Assembly (NCBI GenBank): GCA_964016885.1
Contig: CAXHJY010000983.1
Location: 1 to 47,411 of the forward strand
Direction of reading: 5' to 3'
Source of the DNA: Eledone cirrhosa
Taxonomy: Eukaryota
DNA: 47,411 bases
Shown here: positions 477 through 26,300 of the stretch, piece after piece
How the letters are laid out: each line of letters starts with the position of its first letter
Numbering within the stretch: position 1 is the stretch's first letter
Translations under genes and position numbers: made by a program
Notes under the pieces: model-generated
The model's database searches: none
Seen by the model: only the letters and a program-made list of their open reading frames with translations
What the model was told of the DNA's origin: nothing

Positions 477-3400
477 CCGCAGTAATCGTTCTGTAATCCT
501 CTCATTCTTATAGGACAGTGTTTTCACCGGAACTGTCACATCTAATCAGCTTTTCATAAATACTTCTTATTCCTGCGTGAACATCTGCTAAAGTTACAGT
601 TTTGTTTATATGCTCTGAAATAGAAGATTTCAATGTATTCGAATGTAGACATTTTATTTACTGACGTGCTCTCTCTCTATCTCTCTGTCACACACACACA
701 CACATATACACACGCGCGCACACACACACACGCTCATATATATACATATATATATATATATACACGTATTTGTATATATATAAGTTAAAACAATGAAATA
801 AAAAATCAAGTCATTAGAAATATACTTCACTGCTTTACGATCGTTTCTAGGTGATGATAATACATCGTAACTATACTTCGATATCGATCTATGTAAGGTT
901 AGTTACAAAATATCAGATAAACAGATTCTTTACTTACATGCATATCACCAGCTGTTGTCAAAAGCAACAATAATTTTATTCAAAATTAGTAGTAAATTAG
1001 TATTATGTTTACTTCTATGACCTTGTTTGGAGGTAGTTGAAGAACTAACCAATCAGATTGTTTTTTTGACTAACTGCCTGATGAGGCCATAGCCATTCAA
1101 TGGCTATCATCGAAATATATATAGCCGTAAATCAAGGATTATGAGTTCATGCAATTGACTTATGTTTCGTCAATATATATATAAATATATATCATCATCA
1201 TCATCATCATCGTTTAACGTCCCTGTTCCACGCTTGCATGGGTTTGGACGGGGGTTTTCCCACTTGAGGCAAGAGTGGTTGTCTTGCTCGCATAGGACTA
1301 TCTGGCGGGTTTTCTACAGCTGGATGCCCTTCCTAACACCAACCACATTTACAGTGTGGGACTGGGAGGTTTTTACCGTGTTGCCTACACGGTCACATTA
1401 CAGCGTGGACTGTGTGTTTTTTTGTCGTGACACCTACACGATCTCGTTTGTTTCGGCCTGGATGTTGTGGCACCAACATAACTTTGCATTGAAGGGGGCG
1501 GTGTGGATGGGGTGGGACGGGGGTGTATTTTGTTAGAGATGCCTACTGACTAGTAGGTTTTACTTTGTATTTAGGTGAGGCGGGTCTTCTCTGTTACACA
1601 TATATATATGTATATATATATATATATATGTATATAATTATGTGTATATATATATATATATATATGCATATATATAATTATGTATATATATATATATATA
1701 TATATATATATATATGCATATATATGTATATATATATATATATATCTATCTATATATATATATATATAAACATATATATAGGTGCATATATATATATACA
1801 TAAATATAGATATATTTATACATGACTTTGATAACTTTGATAAATAGGTAGGTTTCGGCCAATTTATGGCCAATGCTACGTCTACCTTAATAGCACCACC
1901 TGGCGAAGTCTTTCAAATCAGGCTTTGGACAGCATGGCCCGCTCAAGTAGAGAGTTATTATTTACCGAGATATGTCCTAGTGTAGGAGGTTTATCCGGGA
2001 TTTCTTGAAGGAATTGATCCAAAGACCTCTTCAACGTTGTGGGGTCCATTTCTCTTTTAATGTGTTTTGGTCTAATGTTAAAGAGAGCGGGGCCAATTGA
2101 GGTGAAATAATTGTGCCGTATTGTAGTAATGAGATACGAGTTTGACTTTTGTTGTGGTCGGATAGCACGGGGCCTAAGCCTTCGGTGTATGTTAAAGGTG
2201 ATGCCAACATCATTTGGGGAATACTGATGGAATATTTTCCACATTATGCAGATCGACGTGGGAGAGAATACATTTTGAGCTTTTCTAGTCAAAGGATTTG
2301 TGCTAGCGCTGTGAAATCTGACATGCATTAATTTCAACATTTCTTATGAATGACCGCATTGTTTATTTCAAGGGACTATATTGAAAAATATTTAGTAAAT
2401 CCACGAGAGTATCTTGGTCAGTCTATGAACTTCTCAGACTAAGAAAGATTAAGCTGTCCCTCGTGCTACTCGCCCAGTGTAACAATATCTCCTGAATGAA
2501 ATAAAAAGACTTGGTTCGGAATAAAAGTACAGAATATAAGAGAACATGGTTTTATATCGGAGTATTTTAGTGAGATTAATTAGATAGAAAACATGGAAAA
2601 TATACATACTGACATGACACAGGGAAGACTCTGAAATAAAAAAGAGGGCCAATGCGTGAGTTGTGGTTAATCAATGAGGTATTGTGTATGTGTATATGTG
2701 AGTATGGGTGTAAGTGTGAGCATTTACCAAACAATAGATTCATGGATGGATAGACGCACACACTCACATACAAACACATACCCAAATGCAGATACACAGA
2801 CAGTCAGGCAGACAGACGCATATACATACACTCTCATATATACATAAACATTTTTACATATATATATATATAAACGTTTGTATTTGTAAAGACAAAACAA
2901 TGCAGGTATGGATATAGAATATAAATGCAAATGCAAAAGATATTGTTGACAATTAGTCTTTTACCTTACATTTATTTAAATATCCTTAGTTTTCGATATA
3001 TATATATATATATATATATATATATATATATATATATATATATATGTATATATATATATATACAAATATATATATATATATATATATATATATATATGTA
3101 TATATATATATATGTATATATATATATATACAAATATATATATATATATATATGTATATATATATATATATATATATGTATATATATATGTATATATATA
3201 TATGTATATATATATATATACAAATATATATATATATACAAATATATATATATATATACAAATATATATATATATACAAATATATATATATATATACAAA
3301 TATATATATATATATACATATATATATATATATATAAATATATATATATATATTAATATATATGTATATATATATATATATATGTGTGTATATATATATA

Positions 3401-23372: not shown

Positions 23373-26300
23373 CTGTAATAAAATATATGTATTTCTTTAT
23401 GTCAATATATATTGTATTTTAGATTCATGTAATTTAAAAGAATAATGTTACTCTATTTGTATGCCCAATATGGGAGCCTGCTGTCCATGTCCAGAAGCTA
23501 TATCCCACCCTCAATGCTACCTGCCGCCTCATTATAGACTACGTGAAATCTACGCCTACAGACCGTCTCCATATCCTCGCAGGTATAGTCCCACCAGATA
23601 TACCACGGAGTGCAGCAGGCAAGAAAGAGCATCAACAAAAGACTACAGATCCATGTTTCAGCAAAAGGCCACCTTAAATTCAGGAAAAGTGTACTAAAAA
23701 GCATTACGTCCCTTACAAAATCAAGCATAATTAATGAAATAGTAACCCGCTGGAAAATAATTTAGCAACCACCCATAAGTAACAAAATTGGTGCTAAAGG
23801 TGAGCGAAGCACTGCCCCCCGGAGCAGATACACACTATGCCTCAACAGACTAAGATCTGGTGCTGGACGCCCAAAAGTCAATGTTGCAAAATTGGGTAAT
23901 TTAAAGGATGGGACGCTGTGTGTGATTGCGGCATTGAACCACTGACCACGCAGTACATCTTGATATGACCCCTGTTGGAACACCCCTGCACAAAATTGGA
24001 CTTGGCAGAGTTTAATGAGAAAGAACAGCAATGTGTTCAGCTGTGGCGGAAGCACATTTAGCAAAGCTGTGTAACTAACACTCTTGGATAATAATAATAA
24101 GAATCTATATAATATAGAGTGGTCATTAACAAAAGTATTATAAGCTAGGGGATCATATTGATATCATAATAGTTATTGCAATGCTATTATAGTAACTCTA
24201 AAGGTTTAATCAATGATTAAATGTTTTGGAGGGTTTTAGTATTTTAATGTTTAATGTTGATATATTGGAAATATATTCCATGTAAAATATGTTTGGTTAC
24301 TGCAGTAACGGGACAATAATAACATCAATGTGATAATGTAGTATTATAGATATTTATATTAAGTTTAGAATAGGTTAAAAGAAAGAGTTTTTGACGGTAT
24401 ATTGACGGACTCTGTAGAACGTCTGATAGAATGCTTGAAGTATTAAATTAGGCCCACACCGTTTTGTGAGTTCAAATATAGAGGTGGTCTCCTTCAGCTT
24501 TCATCCTTTGGAAGTCGATAAAATGTATCAGCCCGATACTTGACTAAATATTTCGTTTCTATCTCTTTTTCACTTCCTCACTTTCATTGTCACAAACGTT
24601 GCCCTTATTCTTTGGCAGACATCACCCGTGATTAGACATGGAATAGGGAAGGGCTACCGAAAGGAGTATAGTGCCCAAGTATGTCGCAACGACTCCATTC
24701 TAGCTGGTGTCCTAACAATGCTACTAATTCGACGCGGCTTATAGTGAAACATATGATATAATACATGTATCAATATTGAAATAGTTTCGATTGATTAGTG
24801 ATATAATTGTGTTACGTACCCTTTCTCTGCTACCGCCACTTTCCCCCTAAAAACAAAAGAGTTGAAAAAATGTAAATGTTAATTGTTAAAGCCTCATATA
24901 TATATATATGTGTATATATATATATATATATTCAATAAGTTATCCTGATCACAGCATCCTAACCATTACGCCACGTGGCTTCACTGAAATCATAAGTGAA
25001 ATCAAATATCTTTGTATCGAAATATAAGTTTGAGCGACTTCCGTCCGTCCCATAATGTGTGTGTGTGTTTGTTTGTGTGAATCTATGTGTGTGTGATTTT
25101 AGAGATGTATGTGCTTTTGTCAGAATGTATGTCATAAGTGTGTATTTTGTAAGTTTGTCTGTCTGCGCTTATATATTTATATGCTCATACACATACACGT
25201 ATGAATATGCATATACACCCACGCATATACCTATACATATTGCAGTCAGCATGTTGCAAAACATTCTTAATTACAATTCTTAATTGTTCACTACCAAGAC
25301 AGCAACCATATATAAAATTCTTATATAAAATTATGTTGAAACATTAAATTATGAATTGATAAACGTTAAAGTTGGTGGTTTTATTTTATAGGACCAGAGC
25401 CGGTTTTAGCTAGGTTGATAACTAAAAGGTTAAAACTGTAACTTACTATGCAAACAACCGCATATGTTGTTAAGTACATATTTTCACACAAATAACCCTT
25501 TCCCTTGAAGCACGCCCAAAAAGGTTTGAAGTATCTGGAATACGATTAAAATGACAATCTCGTTAAAAAAATTGCATGTACGCGCGTGTCTGTTTACAAT
25601 GTTCGACTAAATTGTTCATAGGCAGAATATGAAGGAGTGATGCTAGGACTGTGAAATCTTTGTGCGTTAGTTTCAACTCCACGTATTAATAATCACTATA
25701 TTCCTTACGAGGGATTATGTTGAAAAATAAACCTCATTTGATCATTCCATTAGAGTATCTTGGTTAACCTATAACATTTTAAGTCGACTCTCGCATATAT
25801 ATACATATATATGTATATATATATATATATATATATATATATATATATATATATATATATATATATATGTGTGTGTGTGTTTGGCAGAATTAATTTTCTA
25901 ATGCATGTTATGGCTTTTAAAATTTACAAATTTATATATATATATATATATAGAGAGAAGAAGAATAGAGAAGTTAAAAGGAGATATCGAAAGGATTTAA
26001 GGCAAAGTTGATCTCGGCGGTATTTTAGCTTAGAGGGCAAAAAGCCGAAACTAATATTCCAGAGGATTCTATCAAACTCCCGCACACCTCTGCCAATGCG
26101 TCGCCCAACACCAGGAGTTAAGAGTTCTAAAAGGAAAGTGATATATACTTGCAGAAATTATTTTCTAGTGCTTCCATCGTTGCAGGGCAGACCTCAGCCG
26201 CTGTTGCATCACAGCGCCTCTGTTCGTCCAGAAACTTTGTTCTGGATGTAGCACAAAGAGCTAAAAAGAAAATTTGTTAAGATTTCAATGCATTTGAATA

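Follow-up and report, generated by a model that had tools for sequence, protein, structure and literature searches.

The window analysed here, the 47,411 nucleotides (nt) of contig CAXHJY010000983.1 from the octopod Eledone cirrhosa (assembly GCA_964016885.1), raises the question of why a set of related genes should differ so strongly in a cysteine-rich middle part and so little at the two ends. A preliminary description of positions 477 to 26260 had recognised three such genes (A, B and C) and suggested diversifying selection on a fixed cysteine scaffold; the span omits the signal exon of gene C and a fourth gene, D. Our results place the window within a tandem array whose members almost certainly form a multigene family, most of it intact, on which diversifying selection acts strongly. 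Amino-acid change is in excess in exons 2 and 3 only; sites there that alter amino acids are nearly three times as diverged as the flanking introns.

The exon plan was obtained from aligned homologous blocks and inspection of splice sites on the minus strand. Exon 1 (40 nt) encodes a hydrophobic signal and ends in a phase-1 donor; exon 2 (73-138 nt) carries a variable extension followed by C-x7-C-x(10-12)-C and ends in phase 2; exon 3 (88 nt) carries C-x7-C-x11-C and ends in phase 0; exon 4 is a linker micro-exon, usually of 27 nt; and exon 5 encodes a hydrophobic tail of 17-20 codons up to the stop. Profile searches of the window and of 400 kb of C22, a scaffold of the same 3.0-Gb assembly, found 23 minus-strand genes with a signal exon standing in tandem in C22:24.58-24.91 Mb and the window, besides one orphan tail exon beside another gap. 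Seventeen of the 23 are intact, with five exons in frame and canonical splice sites. The others are B (non-canonical exon-2 acceptor), one copy with a shifted tail, A (contig end), and D and two C22 copies, which are broken. The products and pairs were analysed in 19 copies, the 17 intact ones plus B and the shifted-tail copy, and in all 171 pairwise comparisons among them; none of the counts includes A, D or the two broken copies on C22. The 19 predicted products measure 94-109 residues. All of them retain the six cysteines with spacing 7, 10-12, 8, 7, 11 (frame C-x7-C-x11-C-x8-C-x7-C-x11-C), and six have a seventh. As judged by self-comparison of the window, the tandem units are 10-15 kb long and lie on one strand. 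In a genome search, full-length DNA matches of exons 1, 3 and 5 were confined to C22:24.58-24.91 Mb and the window; elsewhere, the exon queries gave three repeat-flank matches of 35-41 bp.

Over the 171 pairs, mean identity is 0.845 in exon 1 and 0.830 in exon 5, 0.560 in the exon-2 core and 0.566 in exon 3, and 0.67-0.74 in the 45 intron nt beside exons 2 and 3, splice consensus excluded. The three cores compared earlier (477-540, 15610-15674 and 26149-26213, minus strand) do share only 7-8 of 21 residues, namely 7 (A-B), 8 (A-C) and 7 (B-C), with an X at the break in A. The exon that holds them had been called exon 3 and was the only cysteine exon described; it is variable, but it is coding exon 2 of five, and the second three-cysteine exon is equally variable. 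The N-terminal extensions had been described as unalignable and of different lengths. Those of B and C share just one residue, but their lengths are equal (15 residues, in exons of 112 nt); with the homologous acceptor at 615, the extension of A would exceed theirs, and the 19 copies span 3-16 residues. Exon 2 of B and C is alike at 58 of 112 bases. As had been stated, the signal and tail exons in the window are alike, at 33-37 of 40 and 46-59 of 60 bases, respectively.

High similarity had also been claimed for the intron blocks. The pair used to illustrate it, 10921-11018 and 24312-24409, indeed differs at 1 of 98 bases, but it is untypical, since it lies within the most conserved block of the gene; over their alignable parts, the introns of B and C differ at 13-20%. 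This block, 140 bp of AT-rich non-coding DNA in intron 4, has 26 matches, all within the array, and is 91-98% alike in 22 of the 25 others. Among 21 copies the block is 93-97% alike, which makes it more conserved than any coding exon. Note that within it an AG stands directly before a stop codon in 20 of the 21 copies. It is possible that this produces a tail-less secreted form, or that the block is a shared regulatory element. The block also accompanies the duplicated tail exons described below.

Is selection responsible for the variable exons? In nine disjoint paralogue pairs, non-degenerate sites outside the cysteine codons differ at 235 of 804 positions (29%), compared with 7 of 56 (12.5%) four-fold sites, counted where the first two codon bases are equal, and 332 of 3032 (11%) positions in the flanking introns. 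For the four youngest pairs the corresponding counts are 53/361, 0/36 and 47/1418. Eight of the nine pairs are significant individually. In the pair g10-g11, all four introns are 3.5-4.7% diverged and the proportion of nonsynonymous differences (pN) is 0.34 and 0.30.

In support of these counts, codon models gave an omega (dN/dS) of 0.65 for exon 1, 3.0 for exon 2, 1.78 for exon 3 and 0.62 for exon 5. The likelihood-ratio statistic of M2a against M1a was 76.6 on the mature-exon tree and 100.1 on the non-coding tree, with an omega of 4.2-4.6 at 66-69% of 54 codons, and that of M8 against M8a was 67.7 and 85.2 on the same two trees; taken overall, the site models place this same share of codons at an omega of 3.7-4.6. 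Between 33 and 34 sites have a posterior above 0.95, and the six cysteines are at omega 0. Each variable exon alone gave a statistic of about 57, and signal plus tail 0.6; the highest value in eight neutral simulations on three conflicting trees was 7.9. The suggestion of diversifying selection on a cysteine scaffold is therefore upheld by the omega values of both exons and the site tests. The preliminary description had named two observations that would speak instead for conversion of the gene ends, a ratio not above 1 in the variable exon and flanking introns as diverged as that exon. What we found is a ratio above 1 in both variable exons and introns far below the non-degenerate exon sites.

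Several points weigh against selection on this scale. One of the nine disjoint pairs is not significant (p 0.13), and two of the eight neutral simulations passed the 5% cut-off. The codon code was in-house, with five rate classes and single-nucleotide changes only. By unweighted counting, which covers saturated pairs and has 12-15 synonymous sites per exon, pN exceeds pS, its synonymous counterpart, in just 39 of 171 pairs for exon 3 and 67 of 171 for both exons. Finally, model dS for exons 2 and 3 is 2.6 and 3.5, against a non-coding tree length of 1.97, so that some excess at silent sites is possible. We attribute the low counts and the raised dS to saturation and to the small number of silent sites.

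Exchange between copies has to be considered as well. Trees built from 5', middle and 3' non-coding DNA share 2-8 of 16 splits, and those from the two ends 2 of 16 (the alignments are short and many nodes weak); 5' and 3' distances are uncorrelated (rho 0.04). Divergence (p) is 0.28 in the introns around exons 2 and 3, 0.13 in the 5' parts and 0.20 in the 3' parts. In a run-length conversion screen, which ignores regional rate differences and gives only a hint, 22 of the 171 pairs exceeded every one of 300 permutations. Conversion or unequal exchange thus probably shuffles gene ends between copies, alongside selection. This exchange adds to the contrast between exons and introns, but cannot explain the replacement-only excess within young pairs, and the conversion of gene ends named earlier as an alternative would be an addition to selection and not a substitute for it.

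The predicted proteins carry the marks of a surface anchor. Signal and glycosylphosphatidylinositol (GPI) features were scored by hand. At the N-terminus of all 19 copies, a basic residue at position 3 precedes residues 4-13 with a mean hydropathy of 1.8-3.3. Small residues occupy four adjacent linker positions in 17, 16, 19 and 19 of the 19. In 18 a polar spacer comes after the linker, and the protein then ends in a hydrophobic stretch with no cytoplasmic extension; in 18 the tail reaches a best 12-residue hydropathy of 1.8-2.5 and has no more than one charge among its final 14 residues. The part of PMC5054108 consulted gives the layout of a GPI signal as small residues, a spacer of about seven and a hydrophobic C-terminal tail, and 18 of the 19 copies match the rule in that form. 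The family is therefore, on this prediction, probably GPI-anchored. About 28 conserved residues follow the cysteine domain. A basic pair occurs in the linker of 6 of 19 copies, and net charge runs from -5 to +6. No conserved propeptide site was found before Cys1, where a dibasic pair is present in 2 of 19 copies and RxxR in 0 of 19.

As to the fold, AlphaFold2 models of single-exon half-domains each gave a helix-turn-helix, with a predicted local distance difference test score of 82.5 in one case and 58.1 in the other, the latter including 12 flanking residues encoded by intron sequence. In exon 3, the positions not under selection hold aromatic residues or cysteine and recur every 3-4 residues, the spacing of a helix, as would be expected if the core is buried while the surface changes. 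Exons 2 and 3 share the pattern C-x7-C-x11-C, and an intron-1 block (window 2292-2426 and 17590-17770) is 68-76% like the stretch before exon 3 (25595-25774); together these hint at an old internal duplication. Treating the two exons as internal repeats was rejected: the spacing is equal, but there is no profile similarity (probability 0.4%).

The family has no sequence match in Pfam or PDB. Word-seeded exon-profile searches (621, 1910 and 4707 candidates) returned no homologues, and HMMER against 1.84 billion representatives gave three matches, all to long tandem-repeat sequences. In calibration, spliced members score 17-51 bits on single-exon profiles and divergent copies are missed, so that these negatives exclude close relatives only. 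Pfam gave no match at E <0.03 for 17 and 18 exon peptides, the best E against PDB sequences was 0.47, the ESM Atlas returned nothing usable, and Foldseek with the exon-2 model found nothing at E 0.001. Literature searches, which did not extend to the supplements of cephalopod genome papers or to subscription papers, turned up no account of the family.

Four known systems are nevertheless instructive. Conotoxins, in the part of PMC10561478 consulted, combine a conserved signal with a hypervariable, positively selected cysteine-framed mature region whose exons diverge about three times as much as their flanks. The array genes share the conserved signal and the hypervariable, selected, cysteine-framed region; unlike conotoxins, they lack a propeptide, spread the variable domain over two exons, continue with a linker micro-exon and a hydrophobic tail, use another cysteine frame, and encode what is predicted to be an anchored helical product, not a free venom peptide. 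Mytilus MgCRP-I, as far as the portion of PMC4558851 goes, places the frame C(X3-6)C(X1-7)CC(X3-4)C(X3-5)C behind a dibasic site, in a single last exon, and has no anchor; GPI is mentioned 0 times in that paper. Like MgCRP-I, the array is a mollusc multigene family with six invariant cysteines, a conserved signal, a signal exon followed by a phase-1 intron, selection indicated by site models and pseudogenes among the copies; its spacing (7, 10-12, 8, 7, 11 over two exons) does not fit the MgCRP-I frame.

The third is the repulsive guidance molecule (RGM), whose N-terminal domain (PF06535) is a three-helix bundle with three disulfides in a GPI-anchored protein, according to the part of PMC7354924 consulted. 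The array resembles it in its six cysteines, its predicted helices and GPI anchor and the central C-x8-C-x7-C, which is the same in the genome's own RGM; our models give two helices per exon, for half-domains only. The exon for that domain lies on another scaffold (C5:106850511-106850714) and exceeds the Pfam cut-off, whereas a PF06535 search of the genome found no match to the array, where the domain is intron-split. The outer spacings are 4, 21 and 21 in RGM and 7, 11 and 11 in the array (2 of 5 spacings equal), and products of 94-109 residues are too short for the RGM C-terminal domain. The family profile scores 2.7 bits against RGM, a value equalled by 168 of 500 cysteine-fixed shuffles (one RGM sequence), and hhalign gives a probability of 0.2%. 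At the level of sequence, the resemblance does not exceed the cysteine spacing. Finally, the Ly6/uPAR clusters and the apicomplexan SAG/SRS proteins are GPI-anchored variable surface families in arrays. They share with the E. cirrhosa genes the signal, the disulfide-held variable domain, the GPI signal, the tandem array and birth and death of copies, and differ in cysteine frame and from the predicted all-helical fold.

What might such proteins do? The explanation that we prefer, and to which we give about an even chance, is that the genes encode small GPI-anchored helical proteins forming a diversified surface set that binds foreign molecules, with microbes or parasites as the most probable source of these. 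The signal exon would direct the protein into the secretory path, and a GPI lipid would take the place of the hydrophobic tail at the run of small residues in the micro-exon. A helical domain of 55-75 residues with three disulfides would then be displayed on the surface, its conserved aromatic and cysteine positions inside and its selected positions outside. Copies would be gained and lost by unequal crossing-over, a process of birth and death, and selection would favour new binding surfaces because the binding partner itself changes. It speaks against this explanation that the exon plan is read from the DNA, splicing and expression being predicted, and that no result singles out microbes as the partner rather than gametes, odours or neighbouring cells. 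Recognition as the function is what we infer.

The same anchored proteins could instead serve in reproduction, as recognition molecules of the sperm, spermatophore or egg surface driven by sexual conflict or mate choice. The same anatomy and selection data speak for this, and there are known cases of gamete proteins that carry a GPI anchor and evolve under positive selection. We consider it unlikely, since 23 divergent paralogues in one genome would suit a repertoire better than a single ligand-receptor pair.

Alternatively, the domain could be shed from its anchor, or made without the tail, as a secreted toxin or antimicrobial peptide. The conserved signal, hypervariable cysteine domain and roughly threefold excess of exon over flank divergence are those of conotoxins (PMC10561478, in the part consulted), the AG and stop in intron 4 (20/21 copies) could yield a tail-less form, and a basic pair is available in six linkers. 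The conotoxin-like reading suggested earlier, however, finds no support in the type of product: a propeptide or conserved cleavage site is missing (2/19 and 0/19), and the domain runs instead into a small-residue site and a hydrophobic tail. The tail exon stays hydrophobic (omega 0.62), and the spacing matches neither MgCRP-I nor an adjacent-cysteine frame. A net charge of -5 to +6 is unlike that of cationic antimicrobial peptides. This makes a toxin or antimicrobial role quite doubtful. We see a slim chance that octopods possess, in these helical mini-receptors, a germline recognition repertoire under selection of conotoxin strength, in which the intron-4 element lets cells choose between paralogues or between an anchored and a secreted form, a pair comparable to receptor and antibody.

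It is very unlikely that the array is an identity code of neurons or skin cells, in which the intron-4 block would let each cell show one or a few paralogues and so recognise itself or guide its wiring. Genes that are clustered on one strand and vary in the middle but not at the ends, a non-coding block confined to the array and 91-98% alike, and a central cysteine spacing equal to that of the genome's RGM would all suit such a code; but the RGM similarity stops at that spacing, and an omega of about 4, seen at two-thirds of the sites when young paralogues are compared, suggests a changing partner from outside. An account without selection, whether by conversion that homogenises introns and terminal exons, by a mutator aimed at the middle exons or by decay of the copies as pseudogenes, could draw on the discordant, uncorrelated ends, the higher intron divergence near exons 2 and 3 and a model dS raised 1.3-1.8 fold, but as the sole cause it is largely refuted, and to us extremely improbable, by exon four-fold sites that match the intron rate with non-degenerate sites 2.7 times higher, by the pair g10-g11, and by the retention of cysteines, exon-3 length and open frames.

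Table 1. Features of the gene family in the window
Feature	Position	Strand	Remarks
Gene A exon 2	477..614	minus	one-base frameshift near 520 in the assembly; later exons beyond the window
Gene A exon 1	6632..6671	minus	signal
Second tail-exon copy behind gene B	7235..7288	minus	shorter; open frame
Gene B exon 5	9781..9840	minus	tail
Conserved non-coding block, intron 4 of gene B	10870..11010		copies at 24261-24401, 36621-36761, 47167-47307
Gene B linker micro-exon, second copy	11448..11471	minus	24 nt
Gene B linker micro-exon, first copy	11524..11550	minus	27 nt
Gene B exon 3	14482..14569	minus	
Gene B exon 2	15610..15721	minus	open frame; non-canonical acceptor in the assembly
Gene B exon 1	21652..21691	minus	signal
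Gene C exon 5	23313..23372	minus	hydrophobic tail of 19 codons, then stop; predicted GPI signal
Gene C exon 4	24820..24846	minus	27-nt linker micro-exon; small-residue run, predicted GPI site
Gene C exon 3	25447..25534	minus	88 nt; phase 2 to 0; Cys4-6; hypervariable
Gene C exon 2	26149..26260	minus	phase 1 to 2; signal end, 15-residue extension, Cys1-3; hypervariable; AG/GT sites, open frame
Gene C exon 1	32367..32406	minus	13-codon hydrophobic signal; phase-1 donor
Gene D exon 5	35892..35951	minus	tail
Gene D micro-exon	37344..37369	minus	26 nt; out of frame
Gene D exon 3	38671..38758	minus	Cys6 replaced by Trp
Gene D exon 1	45935..45974	minus	signal; no exon 2 found behind it
Tail exon of the next gene	46395..46454	minus	same place as C22:24685792

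Gene D is likely a pseudogene. It lacks exon 2 and the preceding intron-1 blocks (window 38758-45935), which are also absent from the scaffold copy of most of this stretch. The frameshift of gene A is likely an assembly error, because the contigs of two sequencing runs that span the site do not contain it; that of a third run stops 4 bases beyond (one sample, depth 2-3). Other one-base lesions may be of the same kind. The later exons of A may be those at C22:24675429 and below, although no direct overlap was found. Linker and tail exons are often duplicated within genes, with 27 exon-4 and 26 exon-5 matches on C22 against 21 for exon 1; the duplicates in the window lie at 11448-11550 and 7235-7288, and several C22 copies have them too. 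Such duplicates might offer a choice of linker or anchor. The tail exon has a second open frame, rich in cysteines, but neither this frame nor its interpretation as a signal exon was accepted; the phases require frame 0, which has the conserved stop and the hydrophobicity. Cysteine codons are position-specific (Cys3 is TGC and Cys5 TGT in 19/19, Cys2 is split 10 and 9), an observation on which we base no formal claim.

Window and scaffold overlap at 39535-47411 and C22:24679216-24686750. Positions 44577-47411 are 99.2% identical to C22:24683909-24686750, and matches of lower identity run through TA-rich DNA from window position 39535, reaching the gap edge at C22:24679016. The window therefore likely supplies, as these alignments suggest, about 39 kb missing from the C22 gap beside the overlap. 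Multi-kilobase TA-rich satellites occupy intron 1 of A, C and D (3000-6070, 26370-27940 and 40200-44200). Decayed remnants that we take to be like long interspersed nuclear elements lie at 9870-10550, 23440-24060, 28400-29600 and 1825-2290; no Pfam match was found in the 20 of 59 frames scanned in them. Some are common to several copies and are therefore older than the duplications. The introns also contain what we take to be an octopus short interspersed nuclear element (SINE). Among the flanks, no neighbouring gene exceeded the Pfam cut-off in the 69 of 152 frames scanned, and a search with one exon-junction pattern found no processed copy.

Annotation easily overlooks exons as short as 27-115 nt when they lie in repeat-rich DNA, and this may explain why our searches met no record of the family. 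An evolutionary pattern known from toxins and defence peptides appears here in a family without a database match that bears the marks of a surface anchor; to our knowledge, few variable recognition molecules have been described for octopus-like animals. The proteins are small enough to be expressed as a panel, and both their tissue and their partner are directly testable. With two-thirds of a 54-codon domain evolving at an omega of about 4, these octopus-like animals bear the mark of a molecular conflict that is still active.

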